From Nostoc punctiforme PCC 73102 (lineage in GTDB: Bacteria; Cyanobacteriota; Cyanobacteriia; Cyanobacteriales; Nostocaceae), in NCBI RefSeq assembly GCF_000020025.1, contig NC_010628.1, forward strand, positions 1,950,001-1,982,000: a stretch of DNA of 32,000 bases, written 5' to 3'. The notes under the pieces were generated by a model. The model saw only the letters and a program-made list of their open reading frames with translations, had not been told where the DNA came from and made no database searches. A program made the position numbers and the translations under genes. Shown piece after piece: positions 10,805 to 30,386 of the stretch; positions within the stretch are counted from its first letter, which is position 1, and every line of letters begins with the position of its first letter.

Positions 10805-10857
10805 CGAACCGCCAAGACGCGAAGGGCGCGAAGTAAAGAAAGAATTAGAGAGTTTGT

Positions 10858-10894
10858 TTGCCTTGGGATTTAAGAATCTTAAGGCAAGTTTTTT
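10858..10894 (+). terminator. Rho-independent terminator of the pnt operon
   Basis: 13-bp stem (with G-U pairs) ttgccttgggatt / aatcttaaggcaa, loop taag, followed by GTTTTTT. It starts 54 nt after the pntB stop. Confidence 0.7.
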
Positions 10895-10925
10895 AGTTAA
10901 GGAAAGAATCTGAAAATTAGGCTAA

Positions 10926-11330
10926 TCAATTTGAATTACGCCAAAAAGCTCCAATATGATTACCATCTAGGTCTTTGACAGAAGTACTATAATAGTTGTC
11001 TTCTCTTAACCCTGGTTTTTCAATTTCAGTAGCTCCATTTGCTATGGCAGCCGCAAAAAATGTATCTACGGCACTCTGATTTTTAGCTGGGAAACTAGAC
11101 AAGCTAGTAAACAGTTGGGTAGTTCCTGGAAGATCGCGGGTTTCAATAAGTGACAAAACTTTTGAATCTGAATCTTCGTCTAAACAATATTGTGCTTCTC
11201 TCATGCCGTTTGCCTCAAAGTTCTTACAGCGAGGAAAACTTAGTGCTGTCATTGTAGCATCATAGAATACTAAACTGCGCTCAAAATCATATACTAGCAA
11301 TACAGGGGATATATTAATTGTAAATGTCAT
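10926..11330 (-). CDS. VOC (glyoxalase/bleomycin-resistance/dioxygenase) family protein
   Basis: 134 aa. V.DFERSL.FY near the N-terminus and Y.....DLDGN.I..F at the C-terminus are the usual VOC-fold signposts. AT-rich codon usage. Confidence 0.5.
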   Translation of the reverse strand: MTFTINISPVLLVYDFERSLVFYDATMTALSFPRCKNFEANGMREAQYCLDEDSDSKVLSLIETRDLPGTTQLFTSLSSFPAKNQSAVDTFFAAAIANGATEIEKPGLREDNYYSTSVKDLDGNHIGAFWRNSN

Positions 11331-11355
11331 TTTTTTGTTTCCTAAGTAAATTTAT

Positions 11356-11694
11356 TTAAGCTAAATCCTTGTAACATTGGGGACAATGATAAATTGAGGC
11401 ATTAGCATCTGTGCTAAAAGCCATATTGCAAAAAGGACAAATAGCCATAGGATGATGGCATTGTTCACAGCCCATAACATCAACAGCATCTGTTGCACTA
11501 AGTAAATCGACAAAGGATTTTCCTTTAGTCCAAAAAGTTTTAGTCACACCAGAAAATATTGCAAATACGATATTAGTATCAAAGTACTGATGACTAAAAA
11601 GACGCTCTTTTTCACATATAGGGCATACTCCTTTCCATACAGATTCTAATCTTTTTCCAGAACCTTCATGTAAGGTAAGCTTGACGATAGACAT
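11356..11694 (-). CDS. Hypothetical small Cys-rich (4 x CxxC, zinc-ribbon-like) protein
   Basis: 112 aa with CPIC (res. 24-27), CEQC, CPFC and CPQC, i.e. four CxxC pairs. No family recognised. Confidence 0.5.
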   Translation of the reverse strand: MSIVKLTLHEGSGKRLESVWKGVCPICEKERLFSHQYFDTNIVFAIFSGVTKTFWTKGKSFVDLLSATDAVDVMGCEQCHHPMAICPFCNMAFSTDANASIYHCPQCYKDLA

Positions 11695-11810
11695 TAATAC
11701 ACCTGACTCTCAGATTTACGTTTTTTATTATACTTTATGCCTCTTTGTAAGTCCTTGTAGATTGATAGGGATTCATTACAGTATAATTAGTATATTTACT
11801 TAAGTAGTAT

Positions 11811-11950
11811 TCTCTTCTTCCTCTATGTACTCTGCGTCTCTGTAGTTCGTTAAAAAGAGCGATCACCTGCAAAATCTTCAGCGTGCGATCGCCCTCTGCT
11901 TCCTCTGTGTCCTCTATGCCTTGAGTGGTTCGTTAAAAAAAGCGATCGCT
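11811..11950 (+). repeat. Two tandem copies of a HIP1-bounded dispersed repeat (CTCTGTG..CTCTGCGTCTCTGTGGTTCGTTAAAAAGAGCGATCGC family)
   Basis: Copy A (~11811-11869) and copy B (~11893-11950) align by eye with the copies at 12611-12745 and 13081-13150. The last HIP1 overlaps the mazF stop codon. Confidence 0.7.
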
Positions 11951-12302
11951 AATATATTGGGTGAGAAATATTTAAGACAACAGCTAATGCTTGACAAATA
12001 AGTTGCATTTCTGAGTCAGAGATTTGACCTAGTTTTCTAACTAATCTTGTTTCTGAAACTGAACGTATTTGAAAAGTATCTACACCAGAAACTTTAGCTA
12101 AACTGTTCTCTGTGCTTGGTTCCAGGCGCACCATCCAAGGTCTAACAGCATATCTTTCTTTCCAATCCGTAACTGGGACAATGACCTTCAAAGGCAAAAT
12201 CCCAATAGCATCATCATTGACTATGATACAAGGACGTTTTTTGCTAATTTCTGTCCCTACTGTTGGATCTAAATTAACTAACCAGACTTCACCTCTATAC
12301 AT
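11949..12302 (-). CDS. mazF: Type II toxin, PemK/MazF-family endoribonuclease
   Basis: 117 aa. MYRGEVWLVNLDPTVGTEISKKRPCIIVNDD is the canonical MazF/PemK N-terminus. An antitoxin-sized ORF lies 22 nt upstream. Confidence 0.85.
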   Translation of the reverse strand: MYRGEVWLVNLDPTVGTEISKKRPCIIVNDDAIGILPLKVIVPVTDWKERYAVRPWMVRLEPSTENSLAKVSGVDTFQIRSVSETRLVRKLGQISDSEMQLICQALAVVLNISHPIY

Positions 12303-12324
12303 AATTTCCTGAGTTGTGTAAGTC

Positions 12325-12561
12325 TTAATCTGGATAGTCGCAAAAGTCTTCTCCCTCTAAGTCAGAGAATATATCTAATTCACTACCAGGTGCATAATCT
12401 GCAATAGCTGTCACTGCCGCTAGTGTTAATTGGCGTTTTTGCTCATCTTTGGTAAGTGAGTGTTTTTCTTGAAGAACTAATTGCAGGGCTGACTCAGCTA
12501 TCTTCAGGCGATCGCTTATGCTCAGGCTTGGGAGTGCTTGGAGAATTTCTTTAGTTTCCAT
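12325..12561 (-). CDS. Putative antitoxin (addiction-module-component-like, not MazE/AbrB-like)
   Basis: 78 aa, directly upstream of mazF. The helical N-terminus (ILQALPSLSISDRLKIAESAL) resembles the 'putative addiction module component' family. Acidic C-terminal tail DLEGEDFCDYPD. Confidence 0.55.
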   Translation of the reverse strand: METKEILQALPSLSISDRLKIAESALQLVLQEKHSLTKDEQKRQLTLAAVTAIADYAPGSELDIFSDLEGEDFCDYPD

Positions 12562-12610
12562 ATTAATTCATAGAGCAACTTATATTACTAATGCTAGTGA
12601 AATTATAATA

Positions 12611-12745
12611 AGCGATCGCCTAAAAAATCTCCACAGTGCGTAGGCAAACGCGAGTGCGTCTCTCGTTCTCTTTTTCCTCTGTGTTCTCTGCGTCTCTGTG
12701 GTTCGTTAAAAAGAGCGATCGCTAAATCTCCACAGTGCGATCGCT
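12611..12745 (+). repeat. Dispersed repeat copies (same family, same orientation as 11811-11950)
   Basis: GCGATCGCCTAAAAAATCTCCACAGTGCG...TTCCTCTGTGTTCTCTGCGTCTCTGTGGTTCGTTAAAAAGAGCGATCGCTAAATCTCCACAGTGCGATCGC. Confidence 0.7.
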
Positions 12746-13080
12746 TGGTTCATTTTCTAAATTTCTTGCCATTCTCTAGCATCAATAAAAATAGATAGAT
12801 GTTTTTTATTGCTTGTGGCAATAATAACCTCATGCCCGTAATTAGCAACTAAAATAGATAGCTTTATTATCTGCTGTAAATTTACCTTGATTATAAATAC
12901 CTTGCAAGTAGATAATTTAAAAACACGAGTAGATATTAATCAGTTTTAGCACTGGTAATCATATTATATTTTAGCGTGAATAACTATTTTAGTTTACTGA
13001 GAACGTCCCGACGTTTACATGGTATCGAACGGATCAAGAATCGGTTCCTAATCGAGTGCGCCTATTGTGTGACATAAAAA

Positions 13081-13150
13081 AGCGATCGCTTCGCTCTCTT
13101 TTTGCTCTGTGTCCTCTGCGCCTCTGTGGTTCGTTAAAAAAAGTGTAGGC
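13081..13150 (+). repeat. Dispersed repeat copy (same family)
   Basis: GCGATCGCTTCGCTCTCTTTTTGCTCTGTGTCCTCTGCGCCTCTGTGGTTCGTTAAAAAAAG. Confidence 0.65.
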
Positions 13151-13191
13151 GATGGCGTAGCCTCTCGTAGAGAAAGCACCGCCCATTTTTT
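13136..13191. terminator. Possible bidirectional terminator-like hairpin downstream of the GAF kinase
   Basis: Imperfect stem ggcgatg (13148-13154) / caccgcc (13177-13183), flanked by A7 (13136-13142) on the left and T6 (13186-13191) on the right. The kinase stop is at 13193. Confidence 0.35.
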
Positions 13192-13192
13192 C

Positions 13193-16100
13193 TTAACTAA
13201 CTGTCCGTTTGAGCGGGATTTCTATCCAGAACTCACAGCCTTTGCCAGGTTCAGAAACACACTTGATATTACCGCCGTGTTTTTCCACAATGATTTGGTA
13301 GCTAATAGATAACCCCAAGCCAGTACCTTGTCCAGGTTGTTTGGTGGTAAAGAAAGGTTCAAAAATGCGCGATCGCTTAATCTCTGGAATTCCACAACCA
13401 TTGTCAGCAATCCAAATCAGAATAGTATTTCCTTCGATAACTTCTGTACGAATCCAAATTTTAGGATTGTCAATTTTTTTTCTACTAGTTGCTGAGTTTT
13501 CTAGTGCATCGATCGCATTGTTGAGAATATTCATAAACACCTGATTCATCTGGGCCCCATAGCAGACTAATGGAGGTAATTCACCATATTGTTTAACTAC
13601 CTCAATAGCAAAAGAATTAGTCTCTGGTTGCAGCCGATGTTGTAAAATCAACAAAGTACTGTCGATACCTTCATGAAGGTCAACGGGTTTCATTCCTGTT
13701 TCATCAAGTCGAGAAAAACTTCGTAACGACAAGACTAATTGAGAGATCCGATCTGCCCCCATCTTCATTGAAGTAAGAATTTTGGGTAAGTCATCACTAA
13801 TAAAATCTAAATCCAGTACTGCTACTTGCTTTTTAATTTCCTCTGTTGTCTTAGGATACTGTTTCTGATAAAGACGCAGTAATTTCAATAAATTTTCGGC
13901 ATGCTCAGTAACATAAGTGATGTTGCCATAAATAAAACTAATCGGGTTGTTAATTTCATGTGCTATACCAGCAACTAACTGCCCTAAACCTGCCATTTTT
14001 TCACTTTGAATTAACTGGCTTTGAGTGTGCTGTAATTCTTTAAGAGTCTGGGTCAGTTCTTCTTTTTGACGTTGAGTTTGTTCGAGTAATTCTGCTTGCT
14101 GAAGTCCTACCCCTAACTGAGTACCAATCTGCATCACCAAATCTACCTCATCCTCTTGCCAATCACGGGGCTTGATATTTTGATAAGCTGCTAGTAATCC
14201 CCAAAGTTTCTCACCCTGAAAAATCGGCACAATCATATATGCCCTAGCCTGCATTAGCTCAAGCAGGGCAATATGACAGATAGAATAATTGGCGCTATAA
14301 ATATCTTTAATGACAATACTTTTACCATTAGCAAAATTTCTACCTTGGGTTTCTTGTAAGTAATCATCTGCAACTACGGGTACAATCTCCCTTACTGGTG
14401 TCCAACCTTGGGCTAATGACTCAGCAACAAATTCACCACTCCAATCAGCCCGGAATCTATAGATTGTGACTCGATCAACTTCCAATAACCTTCGGACTTC
14501 TTCTGTACTAGTAGCAAAGATGGTTCCAATATCAAGAGACTGGCGAATTTTCTCCACTGTTGCGGCTAACGCCTTTTCCCTTTCGGCTGCTTTCCGTTCT
14601 CGCTCGGCAGCTTTAGCTAGTTTTTGAGTCTGCACCTGCATCTGTTTCAATGACTCAGCTTGCTGTAATGCTACCCCTAATTGAACGCCAACTTGCGCTA
14701 ATAAGTTTATTTCCTCATCTTGCCAATAGCGGGGCTGGGAGTTTTGATAAGCTACTAACAATCCCCACAACTTCTCACCCTGAGAAATTGGTACAAAAGC
14801 TTCATTCCGTGCATACTTACCCGCTTGCTTTCCTTGCACAAAAACACCTTCTGTCACTGGCTGCGGCTTAACTATTGGTGTCCAGCCATCAACAATAGAA
14901 TCGGCGACAAATTCGCCACTCCAATCAGGATAGAAGCGATAAATTGCCACTCGTTCCACTTCTAATAGCCGACGGACTTCTTGAGTTGTGGTTTTAAAAA
15001 TGGCTTCAATTTCCAAAGACTGACGAATTTTTTCTACAGTGTTCGCCAACGCCCTTTGTCTTTCAGCAGCTTTACTAATCTCTGCTGCTTGGATTTGCAT
15101 TTGTTGAATAAATTCCGCTTGCTGCAAAGCCACACCTAATTGCGTGCCCACTTGGGTAAGCAAGTAAACCTCATCTTTTTGCCAATCACGGGTTCTGGCG
15201 TTCTCATACACTGCTAGCAAGCCCCAGAGTTTCTGACCGTGGTAAATAGCAATGATTACATAAGCTCTTGCCTGATAAATTTCTAAGATTTTTATGTAGC
15301 AGTCGCTAAAACCTGAATTGTAAATATCATTACAAATTCGGTATACTTCACAACTGCTAAAGCTACCACCTTCGGTATCTTGTAAGTAGGTATCAGCAAC
15401 TGGGGGTTTAGCTAAATCTTTGGCGCTACATTCACTAACATTTTCACTTAATTCCGGCCGCTGCAATTGTTCATCTATGAGGGAAATCCAACCCTCTGCC
15501 ACTGATTCAAACACGAATTCACCACTCCAATCAGGATTGAAGCGATAAATAGCCACGCGGTCAGCATTTAGCAGCTGCCTAAGTTCTACGGTGCTTGTGC
15601 GGAAAATGCTTTCTAAGTCTAGAGACTGACGAATTTTCTCAATGGTTATGGCTATGGTTTTCTGCCATTGGGCTGCTTTTTCTCTGGCTTTTGCTTGTGC
15701 TAGTTGTGCAGATTGTAATTTGACTTGTTCCAGGTAATCTGCTTGCTGTAAAGCAACTCCTAGATGTTCGGCGATTAATTGCACAAACTCAATTTCTGAT
15801 GCTTCCCATTGCCGAGAACTACTACACTGATGAATACACAATAATCCCCATAAATTTTTACCTTTTATCAAGGGGGCAGTTATATTGGCACGTACTTGGA
15901 ATCTTTCTAGAATCTGGATGTAGCAATCACTAGCATTAACTTGATAAATATCAGCTATTGCTCTAATACGACCTTGCTGATACAAGCTTGCGAATTCCTC
16001 ACTAAAGCAGTGGTCGCACAATTTGGCTGCTAGTGCCGAATCCCATTCTGTGGCCACATCTTCATAGATAAATTCCCCTTCCCATGCCAAATCAGGATAC

Positions 16101-16321
16101 AAACGAAACACGCCAACCCGATCGGTTTTCAGAAGTTGGCGGACTTCAGTGACTGTAATTTTGAAGATGGTTTCTATGTCTAGAGACTCGCGGATGCGGG
16201 CAATAACTCCAGACAAGGCTTTTTGTTGCTCATTCTGACGCAAGGAGGATGTCACAGCTGAATGCGATTCTTGCTGTTCTGAATTTGGTTCTATGGGTTG
16301 AGTAGTAGAGGAGTTTTCCAT
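13193..16321 (-). CDS. Multi-GAF sensor histidine kinase (4 GAF modules + DHp/HATPase_c)
   Basis: 1042 aa. There are four repeats of EKIRQSLD(I/L)[25 protein letters not shown]...GW...KLWGLL...Q......W...[13 protein letters not shown], separated by Q/A/E-rich coiled coils. H-box [14 protein letters not shown] (His788 codon = rc of 13958-13960). N, G1 and G2 boxes: [26 protein letters not shown]. Confidence 0.9.
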
Positions 16322-16408: not shown

Positions 16409-16447
16409 AAAAAACAATGTAGGGACACGATACTATCGTGTCCCTAC
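16409..16447 (-). terminator. Rho-independent terminator after petN and the small ORF
   Basis: Perfect 13-bp stem gtagggacacgat/atcgtgtccctac (16419-16447, loop act). On the minus strand it is followed by ATTGTTTTTTGG. Confidence 0.75.
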
Positions 16448-16473
16448 AAGAACATTTTTCAACCACGAGAAAA

Positions 16474-16635
16474 TTATCGCCGCTTGGGAGTGGCGCTGCG
16501 GCTGGTGCGTTTCTCTTCATCTCGGCGACGGCGATCGCGCCAATCTGCCACGGTTAAATAACCAATACCACCGGTGACTACTACGAGCAGCAGTACGGCA
16601 ACTAAAGCTAAAATACTCAAAAATGGACTTTCCAC
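16474..16635 (-). CDS. Unlisted small single-pass membrane protein (53 aa)
   Basis: GTG (rc of 16633-16635) lies 4 nt after GAGG and 7 nt after the petN stop. The product is (M)ESPFLSILALVAVLLLVVVTGGIGYLTVADWRDRRRRDEEKRTSRSATPKRR*: one hydrophobic helix plus an Arg-rich tail. A terminator follows. Below the ORF-track cutoff. Confidence 0.5.
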   Translation of the reverse strand: MESPFLSILALVAVLLLVVVTGGIGYLTVADWRDRRRRDEEKRTSRSATPKRR

Positions 16636-16642
16636 AATGCCT

Positions 16643-16732
16643 CTACAGTCCGTTACGTCCCCAAACTACCATTGCAATTGACCAAGTGAACACAACTAAC
16701 AGCGATACCCAACCTAGTGTCAAAATCTCCAT
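16643..16732 (-). CDS. petN: Cytochrome b6-f complex subunit 8 (PetN)
   Basis: The reverse complement translates to [29 protein letters not shown] (29 aa), essentially the conserved PetN sequence. Below the ORF-track cutoff. Confidence 0.9.
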
Positions 16733-17007
16733 AGTCCCGCTTTTCAAATAATTACAAAAGGTTTCTAATATTTATCATACAGGGATTGGGCAGGCTGAGA
16801 TTTTTTTATAATAAATGGCATTGTAACTTTGGCTGGCGATGTCTACGACGGGCTACGCCTACGCAAATATACACATTTTTCTTGGTAAGCTAGCACTTCA
16901 AGCATTAATAAAGACGAATGTAAAAAAATAGCGATCGCGCTTTCCTACTAGATGCTTTGGGAATACTAGGGTTACGGGTATATATTCAAAATCCTACAAC
17001 CCCTAGT

Positions 17008-18897
17008 ATGATGCAGACATTTTTCAACTATCCTTTCCAATCTAATGGTTTTATTCCCCACGGACATTGTTATCTCTGGCAAACTGGATTAGTTTGGCTC
17101 CACATTATTTCTGATGCTACGATCGCTCTGGCTTATTATTCTATTCCCTTCCTACTGATTTACTTTATTTCCAAACGCAAAGACGTTCCTTTCAATGGAG
17201 TTTTTTTGTTATTTGGTGCTTTTATCATTGCCTGCGGTACTGGACACTTAATGGATATTTGGACGCTTTGGTATCCAGACTATTGGATTGCAGGTGGTTT
17301 AAAAGCTTTAACTGCCATTATTTCAATATACACGGCATTTGCGTTATTTTACCTCATGCCTCAAGCTTTAGCACTACCCAGTCCAGACCAGTTAGAGGCT
17401 ATTAATCGAATACTTTCAACAGAAATTGTCGAGCGCAAGCGTATTGAGAAAGAACTACGTCAAGCAGAAGAAGTTGCTCAAAACTCTAGCCAAGCCAAGA
17501 GTGAATTTCTGGCCAATATGAGTCATGAACTACGCACACCTCTTAACGGTATCCTGGGCTATACACAAATTCTCCAACGCACAGAATCTTTAAGTGAAAA
17601 AGGACGCAAAGGACTCAGCGTTATTTATCAATGTGGTTCTCATCTTTTAACCTTAATTAATGATGTCCTGGATCTCTCCAAGATCGAAGCCCGGAAGTTG
17701 GAATTGTATCCTGTTGATTTCTACTTGCCTGCCTTTATAGATAGCGTGACTGAAATTTGCCGCATCAGGGCAGAACAAAAAGTCATCGCATTTAACATTG
17801 AAATCGATCCTAATTTACCAACGGGTATTCATGGTGATGAAAAACGCTTGCGGCAAGTACTGATTAACTTGCTTAGTAATGCCATGAAGTTTACTCATCA
17901 AGGCAGTGTTACTTTCAAAACTCAGGTCATCAATCAAGAATCAAATGCTAATGGAAAAACTAACTACAAAATTCGCTTTGAGGTAGTAGATACTGGCACT
18001 GGCATAACCCCTGAACAAGCCGAAAAAATATTCCAGCCCTTTGAACAAGTGGGAAGTCAGAAACGACAATCTGAAGGTACAGGCTTAGGATTAGCAATCA
18101 GTCAAAAAATTGTTTTGTTGATGGGTGGTCAAATTAAAGTGCAAAGTGAATTTGGCAAAGGTAGCACTTTCTGGTTTGAGGCAAACTTGTCAGAATCTAA
18201 AGACTGGGCAAAGGTTTCTAGAGTAGTTGAGCAGGGAACTATTATTGCTTATCAAGGAAAAAGGCGCACCATTTTGATTGCAGATGATAAATGGGAAAAC
18301 CGATCGGTAATTGTAAATTTACTAGAGCCAGTTGGGTTTACTGTTGTAGAAGCTAGTAATGGTCAGGAAGCATGGGTACAGTCCCTAGCCCACAAACCAG
18401 ATATGATTATCACTGATTTAGTGATGCCGATATTGGATGGATTTGAGTTAATTAGGCGTTTGCGTCAGTCTGGGGCATTTAAAGAAATTCCGATCGTCGC
18501 TTCGTCAGCAAGTGTGTTTGCAGTCGACCAGCACAAAAGTATTGATGTAGGTGCAGATGCCTTTTTACCAAAGCCTGTAGAAGCTGAAAATCTACTGGAA
18601 ATGCTACGACAGTTTTTGCAACTAGAATGGATTTTTGACGCTAAGGTAGACGCTATCAAAAAAAATTCTCAAGATAGTTCTAATCAACACAATGAGATGA
18701 TTCATCCTAGCAAAGATGTTTTGCAAGAGTTACTCGAACTATCACAAGATGGCGACATTCAAAATATTTTAGAACTGGCTGAAAAACTTTCTGCATCTGA
18801 TGAGAAACTAAACATGTTTTCCCAGCAGCTCATGCAGCTTGCTAGTAATTTCCAACTCAAACGTTTGGAAACTTTTATTGAAAAATACATCAATTAA
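17008..18897 (+). CDS. Hybrid sensor histidine kinase/response regulator with an ethylene-receptor-like N-terminal transmembrane domain
   Basis: The track ORF starts at 16957 (non-ATG); the tandem ATGs at 17008/17011 are the likelier start. Three predicted TM helices align with Arabidopsis ETR1 residues ~20-115 (details in findings). HisKA H-box FLANMSHELRTPLNGILGY (His codon 17524-17526). HATPase_c: GDEKRLRQVLINLLSNAMKF, DTGTGI, GTGLGLAIS. REC: ILIADD...DMIITDLVMPILDG...KP. Then a ~90-aa helical tail. Confidence 0.88.
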   Translation: MMQTFFNYPFQSNGFIPHGHCYLWQTGLVWLHIISDATIALAYYSIPFLLIYFISKRKDVPFNGVFLLFGAFIIACGTGHLMDIWTLWYPDYWIAGGLKALTAIISIYTAFALFYLMPQALALPSPDQLEAINRILSTEIVERKRIEKELRQAEEVAQNSSQAKSEFLANMSHELRTPLNGILGYTQILQRTESLSEKGRKGLSVIYQCGSHLLTLINDVLDLSKIEARKLELYPVDFYLPAFIDSVTEICRIRAEQKVIAFNIEIDPNLPTGIHGDEKRLRQVLINLLSNAMKFTHQGSVTFKTQVINQESNANGKTNYKIRFEVVDTGTGITPEQAEKIFQPFEQVGSQKRQSEGTGLGLAISQKIVLLMGGQIKVQSEFGKGSTFWFEANLSESKDWAKVSRVVEQGTIIAYQGKRRTILIADDKWENRSVIVNLLEPVGFTVVEASNGQEAWVQSLAHKPDMIITDLVMPILDGFELIRRLRQSGAFKEIPIVASSASVFAVDQHKSIDVGADAFLPKPVEAENLLEMLRQFLQLEWIFDAKVDAIKKNSQDSSNQHNEMIHPSKDVLQELLELSQDGDIQNILELAEKLSASDEKLNMFSQQLMQLASNFQLKRLETFIEKYIN

Positions 18898-18927: not shown

Positions 18928-20193
18928 ATGATCAAACCCCTAAATCACGAATTTATTTTAATTGTGGATGATAATCCGACAAATTTATCTGTCCTGTGTG
19001 CAGCGCTCAATAGTGAAGGTTTTCGTTTCCGTGTTGCAGTCGATGGAGAAACTGCGATTGCCCAGGCTGAACGCAATCAGCCAGAGTTGATTTTGCTGGA
19101 TGTACAAATGCCGGGTATTGATGGATTTGAAACTTGTCGTCGTCTTAAAGCCAATCCTGCCACCCAAAACATTCCGATTATTTTCACTACTGCTTTGGCG
19201 GATACAGAAAGCAAAACGAAGGGATTTTCTCTTGGCGCAGTAGATTATATCCCTAAACCGTTTGCACAAGAGGAAGTCATTGCGAGAGTGCGCGTACATT
19301 TACAGCTCAAAAAATTGACTGAATCTTTGGAACAACAAGTTAGCGATCGCACAAAGGCTTTGCAACAAGCCCAAGTCCAATTGGTACAGCAAGAAAAACT
19401 ATCAACACTCGGAGAGTTAATCGCTGGTATTGGCCATGAAATCAACAACCCCATCAATTTTATTTCCAGCAATATTCCACCCTTAGAAGAATACATTGCA
19501 GGAGTAACCGAGTTGCTCCTACTGTATGAACAAGAGTATCCCAACCCAACAGCTAAAATTACTACTGCGATTGAAAGATTGGATCTGAACTTCGTTCTCG
19601 AAGATATGGGAAAAATTGTGAACTCACTTCAACTAGGAAGTGAACGAATTCAAAACCTTTCTAATTCACTCCGCAACTTTTCTCGTTCGGATAGCGATAC
19701 AAAAATACCTGCTGATTTGCACCAAGGGCTAGATAGTACACTAATGATTTTGCAACACCGCCTCAAAGCTAATGGCGAGCGTCCCAGTATTGAAGTTATT
19801 AAAAGTTATGGAGTATTGCCAGAGGTAAATTGCTATCTAGGGCAAATGAATCAAGTATTTATGAACATTTTGGCAAATGCAATTGATGCCCTTGATGAAG
19901 CTATAATGCAAGGCAAAATGAGCAATCTAATTCCTGAGATTAAAATTGCAACAGAGGTCGATTCTGAACAATTAGTTATAATTCGGATTGCTGATAATGG
20001 AATTGGTATTCCTGAACGGCTTAAAAAACGCTTGTTTGAGCCGTTGTTTACTACAAAAAACGTTGGGAAAGGCACCGGACTTGGCTTGTCGATTGCTTAT
20101 GAAATAGTTGTAGAGAAACACAAGGGTGTATTAGATGTAAATTCTCAACCAGGTACAGGAACCGAATTTACCATCAAAATTCCTATAGAATAG
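18928..20193 (+). CDS. Response-regulator receiver fused to a histidine kinase (REC-HK)
   Basis: 421 aa. REC: ILIVDDNPTNL...LILLDVQMPGIDGFE...KP. Coiled coil, H-box GELIAGIGHEINNPINFI, and ATPase boxes [26 protein letters not shown]. It starts 30 nt after the upstream hybrid kinase. Confidence 0.9.
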   Translation: MIKPLNHEFILIVDDNPTNLSVLCAALNSEGFRFRVAVDGETAIAQAERNQPELILLDVQMPGIDGFETCRRLKANPATQNIPIIFTTALADTESKTKGFSLGAVDYIPKPFAQEEVIARVRVHLQLKKLTESLEQQVSDRTKALQQAQVQLVQQEKLSTLGELIAGIGHEINNPINFISSNIPPLEEYIAGVTELLLLYEQEYPNPTAKITTAIERLDLNFVLEDMGKIVNSLQLGSERIQNLSNSLRNFSRSDSDTKIPADLHQGLDSTLMILQHRLKANGERPSIEVIKSYGVLPEVNCYLGQMNQVFMNILANAIDALDEAIMQGKMSNLIPEIKIATEVDSEQLVIIRIADNGIGIPERLKKRLFEPLFTTKNVGKGTGLGLSIAYEIVVEKHKGVLDVNSQPGTGTEFTIKIPIE

Positions 20194-20287: not shown

Positions 20288-20749
20288 GTGAATCCAATTT
20301 TAGATCCTCAATTAATGGTAGAACGCATAGAATCCCTCAAAGCTGGAATAGTTGGAGGTTTCTCTGTGTGTTTTGTTTTTGTACTTCTCAGTGCTTTGAA
20401 TACTTTTGTACTAGCAAAGTATTTTCAGAACCTTGCAAGTCTGCACAGTGATGTTAACTGGCACTTGTGGGTGAGTGGTGCAATCGCAACTTTTAGTGGC
20501 TTACTATTTGGTGTCACTTACCGCTATATCATCCGCTCAGATAAAAATCCCCAACTTAAAGCTGGTGGGGTTCTGGCCTTTGGTTTGGTGCGGGGATTGA
20601 CTCAGATAGAGCTTGGGTTGAATTCAAATATCACAATTTGGTCTTTTTTGGTATTAGCGGCAGAAAGTTTATTGTGGTTTGTGTTTGCTGCGATCGCTCT
20701 TGATTTTGCGATTAAACTCCGTTGGGTTAAACCTTTTTCATCAATCTAA
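20288..20749 (+). CDS. Hypothetical 4-TM membrane protein
   Basis: 153 aa with a GTG start (alternative ATG at 20315) and four hydrophobic segments. No recognised family. Confidence 0.5.
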   Translation: MNPILDPQLMVERIESLKAGIVGGFSVCFVFVLLSALNTFVLAKYFQNLASLHSDVNWHLWVSGAIATFSGLLFGVTYRYIIRSDKNPQLKAGGVLAFGLVRGLTQIELGLNSNITIWSFLVLAAESLLWFVFAAIALDFAIKLRWVKPFSSI

Positions 20750-28976: not shown

Positions 28977-30386
28977 ATGCCCATGACTAGCGCCATCGAT
29001 AAGAACAGTCAACTGGAAGCACAAGCTTGGGAATTATTGGAAGAGTCCGTAATTTTTTACCAAGGAAAACCCATTGGTACTGTAGCCGCTCACGATCCGG
29101 AGTCAGATGCACTCAATTATGACCAGTGCTTTCTCCGCGATTTTGTGCCTTCTGCCTTGGTGTTTCTCATGTATGGGAAAGCAGAGATTGTCCGTAACTT
29201 CTTAGTAGAAACACTGAAGTTACAAAGTCATGAAAAGCAGATAGACTGCTTTGAACCAGGAGCGGGATTAATGCCTGCCAGTTTCAAAGTGCATTTTAAT
29301 GGCAATGAGGAATTTTTGGTCGCTGATTTTGGTGAGCAAGCGATCGCTCGTGTTCCCCCAATTGATTCTTGTATGTGGTGGATTCTTTTGCTACGAGCTT
29401 ATGAAAAAGCTACAGGCGATTTGTCCCTGGCGCGTCAGCCAGATTTTCAAGCCGGAATCAAACTAATTTTGGATCTTTGCTTAGTACATCGGTTTTCCAT
29501 GTACCCAACAATGTTAGTTCCCGATGGCGCGTTTATGATTGACCGTCGTATGGGAGTCTACGAACATCCTCTAGAAATTCAGGTGTTATTTTATGCGTCC
29601 TTGAGGGCTGCTAGTGAATTGCTTTTACCAGATGGGGATGGGGATAGTTATCTCGGCAAAGTCAATAGGCGATTGGGATCTTTGAAATATCATATCCGCA
29701 ACTATTATTGGCTAGATTTGAAGCGATTGGGGGAAATCTATCGTTACAAAGATAACGAATTTGGTAAAGAAATTGTTAATAAATTCAACATCAACTCAGA
29801 ATCAATTCCTAGTTGGTTGACCGAGTGGTTGCCAGAAACGGGAGGATATTTAGCGGGAAATCTGGGGCCGGGACGGATTGATTTTCGCTTTTTTGCTCTG
29901 GGAAATCTGATGGCAATCTTAACTTCCTTAGCAAGCGAAAAAGAATCTCAAAGCATTATGAATTTATTTGTCCAACGTTGGCAAGACTTGATCGGCTATA
30001 TGCCTGTTAAAATTTGCTTTCCGGCTTTAGAAGGTTTAGAGTGGAGAATTGTTACAGGATGTGACTCTAAAAACAGGGCTTGGTCTTATCACAACGGTGG
30101 CAACTGGCCAGTCTTACTGTGGTTATTTGCATCGGCGGCGCAGAAAGCAGGTCGAACAGAACTTGCTCAAGCAGCGATCGCTATTGCCGAAAGGCGTTTA
30201 TTGAAGGATAAATTCCCTGAATATTACGATGGCAACAATGGCCGTTTAATTGGCAAAGAAGCTAGAATCAATCAAACTTGGAGCATTGCCGGATTGTTGA
30301 CCGCTAAAAAGTTCGTGGAAAATCCAGATTACTTAGAATTAATCAGTTTTGCAGAGGGTCTTGAAGTCCCAGGCTGTAGCCTGTAG
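28977..30386 (+). CDS. Alkaline/neutral invertase (glycoside hydrolase family 100)
   Basis: 469 aa. [70 protein letters not shown] are GH100 signature stretches known from Anabaena InvA/InvB and plant neutral invertases. Confidence 0.88.

Follow-up and report, generated by a model that had tools for sequence, protein, structure and literature searches.

Does the window analysed here, a 32-kb stretch of Nostoc punctiforme PCC 73102 DNA taken as a whole, encode a bacterial counterpart of the plant ethylene receptor ETR1, and if so, to which partner would its signal be passed? A sequence-only reading had singled out one gene for a hybrid histidine kinase whose membrane sensor seemed to align with the plant ethylene-binding domain (EBD), and we followed up this proposal.

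A hybrid histidine kinase with an ethylene-binding domain

17008..18897, + strand: gene for a hybrid histidine kinase of the order EBD-HisKA-HATPase_c-REC (open reading frame, Pfam domains, identity to ACC80285.1)
17089..17376, + strand: ethylene-binding domain, Pfam ETR1_N, residues 28-123 (Pfam, hydropathy, AF2, hhalign)

The open reading frame opens with a TTG at 16957 and ends at 18897. Translation from the ATG at 17008, a start that agrees with GenBank entry ACC80285.1, gives a protein of 629 amino acids which is 100% identical to that entry from N. punctiforme PCC 73102, and all peptide strings quoted in the sequence-only reading were found in the translation. The RefSeq-length form of the protein has 628 residues, and a 99% relative is also on record. 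The generic annotation anticipated for this gene was indeed what we encountered: ACC80285.1 is described as a hybrid histidine kinase only, and public names include 'ATP-binding protein', 'response regulator', 'hybrid sensor histidine kinase' and 'CikA'. Pfam analysis gave the domain order EBD-HisKA-HATPase-REC, with neither a GAF nor a PAS domain. No experiments on the 629-residue kinase were found in the literature searched, and accession searches were likewise empty.

Pfam model PF25487 (ETR1_N) matched residues 28-123 over model positions 2-97 of 97, essentially its full length, with an E-value of 6.8e-42 (142 bits; cutoff 27). BLASTP against P0391, a protein of the Brassicaceae ETR1 cluster, aligned the EBD with an E-value of 1e-20, and comparison of a profile of 121 cyanobacterial EBD sequences with a plant ETR1 profile by hhalign gave a probability of 99.6% and an E-value of 1e-24 across 101 columns, with 39% identity. 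By these comparisons, the similarity to ETR1 is far above chance and the N-terminal membrane domain genuinely belongs to the EBD family. The proposed alignment with the plant domain was thus upheld by profile methods. The ETR1 strings quoted for it were correct, and the ETR1 N-terminus used for comparison is identical to P0391 at 134 of 135 positions.

Hydropathy analysis revealed three hydrophobic segments (residues 33-55, 58-85 and 94-123), and an AF2 model of the N-terminal region (pLDDT 87.5) contained helices at residues 26-56, 63-88, 92-122 and 126-140, with K56-R57-K58 located in loop 1. The topology check suggested beforehand therefore predicts three transmembrane helices, from both hydropathy and AF2, and the kinase is predicted to be cytoplasmic. 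Helix 3 of the EBD, which ends at residue 123, runs into a helical linker of about 40-50 residues that leads to HisKA, starting at residue 163. A search of the PDB found no solved EBD structure for comparison.

Predicted residues for copper and ethylene binding

17113..17115, + strand: D36, equivalent of ETR1 Asp25, helix 1 (alignments; invariant in orthologues)
17233..17235, + strand: C76, equivalent of the Cu(I) ligand Cys65 of ETR1, helix 2 (alignments, conservation)
17245..17247, + strand: H80, equivalent of the Cu(I) ligand His69 of ETR1, helix 2 (alignments, conservation)
17302..17304, + strand: K99, equivalent of ETR1 Lys91, helix 3 (alignments, conservation)
17056..17070, + strand: P-H-G-H-C motif, residues 17-21 (conservation; predicted non-cytoplasmic)

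ETR1 requires D25, Y32, I35, P36, I62, C65 and H69 to bind ethylene (PMC6682694, PMC11819568), and our alignments showed that all seven are kept in the Nostoc kinase, as D36, Y43, I46, P47, I73, C76 and H80. The codons assigned to the C-x3-H pair (17233-17235 and 17245-17247) were exact and encode C76 and H80, and both hhalign and BLASTP against P0391 placed this pair in register with C65 and H69. Equivalents of Asp25, Tyr32 and Ile35-Pro36 were present as had been stated, and those of I62 and K91 could be added. Lys91 of ETR1 is the partner of Asp25, and signal output proceeds via helix 3 (PMC10266040). The seven binding residues and K99 were invariant in 81-82 Nostocales orthologues whose overall identity was 75-100%, C76 did not vary in alignments A1 and A5 or in the orthologue set, and the most conserved columns of the EBD family were the binding residues.

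One position near the metal differs from ETR1. Gly79 occupies the place of T68, which has been modelled 2.7 A from the copper (PMC10266040); most cyanobacterial EBDs carry Thr at this position and 16-25% carry Gly. The affinity for ethylene could therefore differ. The P-H-G-H-C motif preceding helix 1 falls outside the Pfam model and contains C21, the sole N-terminal Cys. Among 121 EBD proteins H18, G19 and C21 were invariant and P17 and H20 were conserved in at least 90%; conservation of the motif extended to the 82 orthologues and to 67 cluster representatives. The H-G-H-C motif is absent from plant receptors and could be metal-binding.

Kinase, receiver and C-terminal domain

17494..17691, + strand: HisKA, residues 163-228 (Pfam E 7.9e-24)
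17833..18189, + strand: HATPase_c, residues 276-394 (Pfam E 4.4e-29)
18271..18606, + strand: receiver domain, residues 422-533 (Pfam E 5.5e-23)
18709..18894, + strand: C-terminal helical domain of ~60 residues, 568-629 (AF2, conservation)

The full set of catalytic motifs (H, N, G1, F and G2) was intact in the kinase. The phospho-accepting His173 (SHELRTP; codon 17524-17526) was invariant in orthologues, and the N, G1, F and G2 boxes of HATPase_c read NLLSNAMKF, VDTGTGI, FQPFEQ and GTGLGLA, respectively. In the receiver domain, the phospho-accepting Asp470 (codon 18415-18417) was accompanied by D426/D427 and K522. The kinase core had been called ETR1-like, and homology was evident, with BLASTP against P0391 aligning the kinase and receiver at 31% identity over 409 amino acids (E 3e-53) and the kinase strings DVLDLSRLEDGSLQL and GDEKRLMQIILNIVGNAVKF occurring in P0391 opposite the corresponding strings of the window. 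The likeness was, however, not specific to ETR1: the NCBIfam matches were TorS (356 bits), BarA (311) and ArcB (275), all far under the family cutoffs, and a PDB search gave 6qrj with an E-value of 1.5e-52 as against 6e-24 for the ETR1 catalytic domain 4pl9, so that TorS and 6qrj matched equally well or better.

Beyond the receiver lies a 60-residue helical domain that is undescribed before. AF2 modelled it as four short helices (pLDDT 88-93), and it recurs in the distant EBD-HK-REC proteins P0244, P0260 and P0348; neither Pfam nor PDB profiles matched it. Its helical pattern and position after the receiver raised the idea of a pseudo-Hpt domain, which we rejected at the level of sequence. An hhalign comparison with the true Hpt region of P0354 returned a probability of 0.5%, the folded tail contains no conserved His, and Foldseek yielded non-significant matches only (E>1), a few Hpt domains among them. 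No Hpt domain was present in the 629-residue protein or elsewhere in the 32-kb window.

Gene neighbourhood

18928..20193, + strand: downstream REC-HK gene, a receiver-histidine kinase of 421 amino acids (Pfam)
13193..16321, - strand: upstream histidine kinase with four GAF domains, in the opposite orientation (Pfam)
20288..20749, + strand: predicted membrane protein of 153 amino acids, downstream of REC-HK (open reading frame)

The REC-HK gene starts 30 nt past the stop codon of the EBD kinase gene. It was present downstream at 80 of 81 Nostocales loci, with the same 30-nt gap in 48 of the 80, and inserts of 93-391 nt separated the two genes in about 20 of them. Outside this order, a Thermoleptolyngbya orthologue of REC-HK (51% identical) lies directly downstream, and REC-HK genes also follow the distant EBD-HK-REC proteins P0386, P0348 and P0354; in two of these four distant lineages the gene pairs overlap or abut (9872/9872; 7430/7427). 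The pairing is thus tight and ancient, extending over the Nostocales and four distant relatives. P0354 has a true Hpt domain built in, and EBD kinases without a receiver domain are followed by a single-domain receiver gene, as in AzoEtr1. A scan detected no terminator-like site between the EBD kinase and REC-HK genes, and shuffled sequence contained more promoter-like sites than the real one. From the spacing we infer co-transcription of the pair, and REC-HK is likely to be both the operon partner and the signalling target of the EBD kinase.

The fourth GAF domain of the upstream kinase is a cyanobacteriochrome of the red/green type (PDB 6bhn, NpR6012g4, E 1.9e-54) with its Cys-His motif kept, and this gene was found at 71 of 81 loci. 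The upstream kinase shares 49% identity with REC-HK in its kinase module and is a possible light-sensing partner of the EBD kinase. The 153-residue membrane protein, which had no Pfam or NCBIfam match, occurred at 65 of 81 loci, in Nostoc only, and was missing from the distant loci.

Proposed mechanism and alternative explanations

Taken together, it is probable that the protein is a membrane-bound ethylene sensor that depends on copper, belongs to the bacterial ETR1-like family and works as a hybrid kinase in a phosphorelay. Binding of copper and ethylene by this kinase we infer by analogy. As in ETR1, SynEtr1 and AzoEtr1, each monomer would hold a single Cu(I) through the Cys, His and Asp, and this copper would bind ethylene; the Asp-Lys bridge would relay the change to helix 3; and ethylene would lower autophosphorylation of H173 and thereby the flow of phosphoryl groups to D470. 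Inhibition of kinase activity by ethylene is reported for ETR1, and on indirect evidence for SynEtr1 (PMC11819568). Gene order suggests that the signal would then reach the receiver of the downstream REC-HK, either directly from H173 or via an unlinked Hpt protein, and would set the activity of this second kinase, which in turn may control a response regulator. If Synechocystis, Geitlerinema and Azospirillum are a guide, the outputs are likely to be surface, motility, phototaxis or biofilm behaviours.

For the step to REC-HK another wiring has to be considered. Ethylene may be sensed and the output nevertheless bypass the adjacent REC-HK. The kinase's own receiver would then act within the molecule, as regulator or phosphate sink, or pass the signal by way of an Hpt to a response regulator, both of them unlinked, and REC-HK would be a separate system that stays in the neighbourhood for different reasons. 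Absence of an Hpt domain from the protein and the window would fit such a bypass, as would the kinase subtype common to REC-HK and the cyanobacteriochrome kinase (HEINNPI H-box, 49% identity), which is unlike that of the EBD kinase and compatible with those two forming a circuit of their own. However, the conservation of REC-HK at 80 of 81 Nostocales loci and in four distant lineages, with overlapping or abutting genes in two, the built-in Hpt of one relative and the plain receiver that follows receiver-less EBD kinases all speak for coupling, and we consider a bypass unlikely, though a real possibility. An improbable reading is that Cu(I) is held as in ETR1 but the physiological signal is not ethylene, a copper-based sensor having been co-opted for another cue; candidates would be redox status, copper, or a small molecule other than ethylene that is unsaturated or a pi-acceptor. 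The size of the family (8,952 clusters), with many of its cyanobacteria not associated with plants, the Gly at the T68 position and the invariant, possibly metal-binding H-G-H-C before helix 1, which plant receptors do not have, would be in keeping with this. Yet the ethylene-binding residues are all invariant in orthologues, every bacterial EBD that has been tested binds ethylene, and cyanobacteria react to ppb levels of the gas (PMC6682694, PMC11819568).

A further reading is that the three helices are a mere membrane anchor or dimerisation module which has lost ligand sensing. A mere anchor would be expected to drift, and we therefore regard this reading as very unlikely, given that the copper and ethylene residues are invariant in 82 orthologues (identity down to 75%) and in more distant members. 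Harder still to credit is a CikA-type circadian input kinase, the name 'Circadian input-output histidine kinase CikA' being attached to the UniRef cluster of the identical protein. CikA is a soluble GAF-HK protein whose pseudo-receiver lacks the phospho-accepting Asp, whereas the Nostoc kinase lacks a GAF domain, keeps D470 and is predicted to have three transmembrane helices, and no CikA model occurred among its best 25 NCBIfam matches, all of which were below cutoff. We rejected the label on domain content; it looks like automatic name propagation.

The proposed ethylene-sensing phosphorelay may be part of a larger arrangement, which we offer as a rather doubtful speculation. EBD-HK-REC and REC-HK would form an ancient, self-contained two-kinase ethylene cassette that recurs beside bilin light sensors and amounts to a 'split SynEtr1' in Nostoc; next to the Thermoleptolyngbya pair lies a SynEtr1-like EBD-GAF-GAF kinase. 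Ethylene and light would then each have a protein of their own as sensor, with the two signals converging on paralogous kinases that act on a single regulator. The output might steer the behaviour of hormogonia as they colonise plants, and the C-terminal helical domain could be the docking element of the cascade.

Place in the family and significance

Proteins that bind ethylene have been known from cyanobacteria since 2002, and the characterised bacterial receptors number three. A search at E<=1e-3 recovered 8,952 sequence clusters of the EBD family, with many architectures, spread over many cyanobacteria without plant association; direct fusion of EBD and kinase is a minority arrangement (~20 of the 149 nearest clusters). 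Pfam now models the domain (PF25487). Cyanobacterial EBD proteins are well documented and feed into diverse outputs, and an abundance of putative ethylene sensors has been noted in N2-fixing symbiotic filamentous species (PMC12288463, PMC7700396). Bacterial EBDs with the binding residues have all bound ethylene when tested, with plant-like affinity, as shown for SynEtr1[1-130] and AzoEtr1[1-130] expressed in Pichia and for Geitlerinema cells, and ppb levels evoke cyanobacterial responses (PMC6682694, PMC11819568). The view of the Nostoc kinase as a simpler, probably uncharacterised variant was right about the GAF-free layout seen by Pfam but overstated its novelty. Since bacterial ETR1 relatives are a recognised family, the protein, a clear relative of ETR1, is a solid but unsurprising candidate ethylene sensor, which extends the known family and does not overturn current views. 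What is new is the context, namely the conserved pairing with REC-HK, the upstream cyanobacteriochrome kinase and the C-terminal helical domain.

N. punctiforme PCC 73102 is genetically tractable and lives in nitrogen-fixing symbiosis with plants. If confirmed, a working receptor for ethylene in this organism would give a direct handle on whether a symbiont reads a plant hormone, and motility- or biofilm-type outputs could matter where symbiotic Nostoc meets plants. The protein would be a near-minimal receptor, its EBD joined by one helix to a kinase with intact motifs and no intervening GAF or PAS domain, and this architecture makes it a good candidate for solving an EBD structure and for measuring the effect of ethylene on kinase activity.

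Comparison with known systems

The Nostoc kinase resembles Arabidopsis ETR1 in its three-helix EBD with the Asp, Cys, His, Lys and other binding residues in register, followed collinearly by HisKA and HATPase domains whose kinase motifs are complete and, at the C-terminus, a receiver; about 39% of the residues are identical within the EBD and 31% across kinase and receiver. In contrast to ETR1, it has no GAF domain between EBD and kinase, whereas PF01590 (GAF) was detected in all plant homologues. Plant subfamily-1 receptors form disulfide-linked dimers through C4 and C6. These two residues were invariant in the plant sequences, and the Nostoc kinase has in place of Cys4 and Cys6 the single C21 of the PHGHC motif, along with Gly79 for Thr68 and an extra 60-residue C-terminal domain. 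It would act in a bacterial phosphorelay, while ETR1 signals through CTR1 and EIN2. The earlier description as a subfamily-1 receptor without GAF thus fits the EBD-HK-REC layout found by Pfam, but the subfamily label is an analogy only, bacterial EBDs forming a separate third group in published trees (PMC6682694).

SynEtr1 (UirS/PixA, slr1212) of Synechocystis PCC 6803 is likewise a cyanobacterial EBD kinase using His-Asp phosphotransfer; it is stated in the literature to share the seven binding residues, which is the basis of our comparison, and in both proteins the cyanobacterial N-terminal stretch contains just one Cys (PMC6682694). As had been pointed out, SynEtr1 carries a cyanobacteriochrome module (PMC6682694): PAS and cyanobacteriochrome GAF domains separate its EBD from the kinase, which in Nostoc are fused directly, the cyanobacteriochrome residing in a separate nearby gene (13193..16321). 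SynEtr1 lacks a receiver and signals to the adjacent slr1213, whereas the Nostoc kinase has its own receiver and REC-HK as partner.

AzoEtr1 of Azospirillum brasilense, for which ethylene binding has been demonstrated (PMC11819568), likewise joins an EBD to a histidine kinase, keeps the seven binding residues and has a partner gene downstream in the same orientation, but is an EBD-PAS-HK protein of 525 amino acids without a receiver, followed by a single-domain response regulator of 135 amino acids. GeiEtr1 and GeiEtr2 of Geitlerinema PCC 7105 are EBD kinases of a filamentous cyanobacterium, GeiEtr2 also ending in a receiver (PMC6682694); unlike the Nostoc kinase, both have GAF domains between EBD and kinase, and GeiEtr2 has PAS/PAC in addition. 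With the unorthodox hybrid kinases TorS, ArcB and BarA, its best NCBIfam matches, the Nostoc protein shares the kinase core and attached receiver, and it differs from this class in having no Hpt domain and a different sensor domain.

Identity and domain organisation of the EBD protein

In the window the HIP1 octamer GCGATCGC occurs 27 times, compared with about 0.4 expected, as befits a cyanobacterial chromosome, and the housekeeping genes rnpA, yidC, pntAB and petN are among the neighbours. The longest frame (16957..18897, +) has an ATG at 17008, giving a 629-aa product with 100% identity to ACC80285.1 (UniProt B2J0R8) of Nostoc punctiforme PCC 73102, named 'integral membrane sensor hybrid histidine kinase' in the databases. 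Pfam domains were as follows:

Residues 28-123: ETR1_N (PF25487), the ethylene-binding domain (EBD), E = 6.8e-42, model positions 2-97 of 97
Residues 163-228: HisKA
Residues 276-394: HATPase_c
Residues 422-533: Response_reg

This full-length match bore out the sequence-only reading of the N-terminus as an ethylene-receptor-like membrane sensor. Its membrane topology was checked using hydropathy and an AlphaFold model (pLDDT 87.5), which agreed on three membrane helices (26-56, 63-88 and 92-122) and a fourth helix heading toward the kinase; K56-R57-K58 in the first loop fits a predicted topology with the N-terminus outside and the kinase inside. It is virtually certain that the protein is an EBD-family hybrid kinase.

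Plant receptor sequences were fetched by a search with an ETR1 sequence whose N-terminus is identical at 134 of 135 positions to P0391, a Brassicaceae cluster representative. BLASTP against P0391 gave E = 1e-20 for the EBD, and 31% identity over 409 aa (E = 3e-53) for the kinase and receiver. Profile-profile comparison of 121 cyanobacterial EBDs with eight plant ETR1 EBDs gave a probability of 99.6% (E = 1e-24) across 101 columns at 39% identity. The equivalent residues are:

D36: ETR1 D25
Y43: ETR1 Y32
I46: ETR1 I35
P47: ETR1 P36
I73: ETR1 I62
C76 (codon 17233-17235): ETR1 C65
H80 (codon 17245-17247): ETR1 H69
K99: ETR1 K91

The alignments place the Cys/His pair in register with C65/H69, as had been claimed, along with the equivalents of D25, Y32, I35 and P36. 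Seven ETR1 residues (D25, Y32, I35, P36, I62, C65 and H69) are reported to be necessary for ethylene binding (PMC6682694, PMC11819568), and Asp25-Lys91 is the output pair of ETR1 (PMC10266040). At the equivalent of ETR1 T68 the EBD protein has Gly79, invariant among orthologues; in the wider family Thr is found in most members and Gly in 16-25%.

Conservation among relatives

The protein has relatives in 208 genome stretches, and the best 80 loci all came from Nostocales or near kin (Nostoc, Dendronalium, Trichormus, Aliinostoc and Plectonema radiosum) at 75-97% identity. C21, D36, Y43, I46, P47, I73, C76, H80 and K99 on the EBD side were invariant in 82/82 sequences, as were the phospho-accepting H173 and receiver residues D427, D470 and K522. 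This conservation indicates purifying selection on the gene, which keeps every sensing and phosphorelay residue. A MAG contig labelled 'uncultured Acetobacteraceae bacterium' (L008, CAZZZY010000078.1) carries the Nostoc EBD kinase at 90% identity together with the downstream kinase gene, which is probably a binning error.

Two further elements of the protein are conserved:

17056..17070 (+): P-H-G-H-C motif, residues 17-21, just before helix 1 and outside the Pfam model
18709..18894 (+): C-terminal helical domain of about 60 residues (568-629), after the receiver

The motif is (near-)invariant in two sets of cyanobacterial-type EBD proteins (n = 121 and n = 67), whereas plant ETR1 lacks it and has C4/C6 there; it may serve in metal acquisition or dimerisation. 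The papers cited here mention just the single N-terminal Cys (PMC6682694). The C-terminal domain is present too in the distant EBD-HK-REC proteins P0244, P0260 and P0348, and AlphaFold predicts four short helices (pLDDT 88-93). It had no match in Pfam or PDB sequences and no significant Foldseek match, and profile comparison detected no relation to the Hpt domain of another EBD kinase, P0354. A docking role would be a guess.

Pairing with a downstream receiver-histidine kinase

18928..20193 (+): receiver-histidine kinase (REC-HK, Pfam), 421 aa, 30 nt 3' of the EBD gene
20288..20749 (+): predicted multi-helix membrane protein, 153 aa, 3' of REC-HK

A scan of the spacer between the EBD and REC-HK genes revealed no terminator-like site. 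REC-HK was present in 80/81 related loci, the sole exception being a 3.5-kb contig that runs out, and the spacer was 30 nt in 48 of the 80. In about 20 of the 80 (L025, L028, L039-L041, L043, L046, L049, L051, L056-L058, L065, L073, L074, L078 and others) inserts of 93-391 nt replace the 30 nt, and may be small mobile repeats. The 153-aa protein matched neither Pfam nor NCBIfam; it follows REC-HK in 65/81 Nostoc loci and is not found in distant lineages.

The EBD-HK-REC then REC-HK arrangement recurs well beyond Nostocales. The stop codon of P0244 of Thermoleptolyngbya oregonensis shares a base with the start of the next REC-HK gene (51% identity to the Nostoc REC-HK), a REC-HK gene comes after P0348, and a REC-HK-REC gene after P0386. 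P0354 ends in a genuine Hpt domain and precedes a REC-GAF-HK gene, while P0265, an EBD-HK without a receiver, precedes a single-domain response regulator, as does AzoEtr1 (PMC11819568). Our proposal that the next kinase takes up the receptor's signal through its own receiver domain is founded mainly on this gene-order pattern. The Thermoleptolyngbya pair lies inside a dense signalling cluster (L082, CP053540.1, 3642..17236) that also encodes a second, SynEtr1-like EBD protein (EBD-GAF-GAF-HK), proteins of HisKA-EAL and REC-Trans_reg_C-Hpt-REC architecture, a single receiver and a further REC-HK.

Upstream cyanobacteriochrome kinase and other neighbours

11949..12302 (-): MazF/PemK toxin gene
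13193..16321 (-): 4xGAF histidine kinase, 1042 aa, upstream of the EBD gene and on the opposite strand
16418..16448: strong terminator-like hairpin, 14-bp stem, after the 53-aa ORF
16474..16635 (-): 53-aa single-helix membrane ORF, Arg/Lys-rich tail, after petN
16643..16732 (-): petN, 29 aa, Pfam PetN E = 7.3e-19
28977..30386 (+): alkaline/neutral invertase (Glyco_hydro_100, E = 1e-219), unrelated to the EBD finding

The 4xGAF kinase adjoins the EBD kinase in 71/81 loci; petN, the 53-aa ORF and the hairpin lie between the two. GAF4 (residues 582-753) keeps the bilin Cys-His and matched the red/green cyanobacteriochrome NpR6012g4 (PDB 6bhn) at E = 1.9e-54. GAF1 has a DXCF-like 'DHCF' motif, and Cys-Tyr replaces its usual Cys-His. 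The kinase modules of the 4xGAF kinase and REC-HK are 49% identical and share the HEINNPI H-box subtype; the EBD kinase is of a different subtype. The corresponding neighbour in Thermoleptolyngbya is the EBD-GAF-GAF kinase, which carries DXCF and Cys-His motifs. Since SynEtr1 joins an EBD and a cyanobacteriochrome in a single chain (PMC6682694), a functional ethylene-light link is plausible on the basis of gene neighbourhood in two lineages.

The segment from pntB to the cyanobacteriochrome kinase (10805..13192) is strain-variable: here it holds the toxin gene and two ORFs without a family, and in a 99%-related genome (L001) radical-SAM, HicA and HicB genes.

Proposed mechanism

The domains and residue identities, the predicted topology and the pairing of the genes are what the analysis shows; by analogy with ETR1, SynEtr1 and AzoEtr1, we propose that C76/H80 with D36 would hold Cu(I), to which ethylene would bind. 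The D36-K99 bridge would then shift helix 3 (PMC10266040, PMC11819568), and this movement may travel to H173 along a helical linker about 50 residues long, ethylene probably lowering autophosphorylation (PMC10266040, PMC11819568). Synteny suggests that phosphoryl groups would move to D470 and on to the REC-HK receiver, which may be reached either straight from H173 or via an unlinked Hpt; no Hpt domain is encoded in the EBD protein or the 32-kb window. Judged by these analogies, the protein probably binds ethylene, and a copper-dependent ethylene sensor wired as a phosphorelay hybrid kinase is the likely overall explanation; once relay to the downstream kinase is included, the complete model has even odds or slightly better. 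The protein would be useful as a minimal, genetically tractable putative ethylene receptor in a plant symbiont.

Comparison with known ethylene receptors

HMMER, run exhaustively with the N-terminal 141 aa as query, matched 8,952 EBD clusters (built at 50% identity) at E <= 1e-3, of which 2,229 reached E <= 1e-30; 1,221 ETR1-related sequences had been analysed before (PMC10266040). From the 149 nearest cluster representatives, 67 were drawn at random; every one had ETR1_N, and the other domains were:

HATPase_c: 50/67
PAS: about 44/67
Receiver: 16/67
GAF: 13/67
GGDEF: 6/67
EAL: 4/67
Hpt: 3/67

By seed-based classification, about 20 of the 149 nearest clusters have a kinase that begins no more than about 75 residues from the EBD, and seven of these also have a receiver; an EBD joined directly to HK-REC is thus the architecture of a minority, yet one that extends beyond Nostoc.

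The kinase strings quoted as ETR1-like do fall within the P0391 alignment, but the core resembles hybrid kinases in general rather than ETR1 in particular. The description as a subfamily-1 receptor without GAF stood for the domain order; because the GAF domain and double N-terminal Cys of plant subfamily 1 are missing, 'subfamily 1' is an analogy. The earlier observations were confirmed in every detail, and their interpretation is supported. No paper on the protein itself turned up in literature and accession searches. Experiments have been done on SynEtr1, the Geitlerinema receptors and AzoEtr1 (PMC6682694, PMC11819568); beside them, the Nostoc protein is an uncharacterised addition to a well-known kind and will not surprise specialists.
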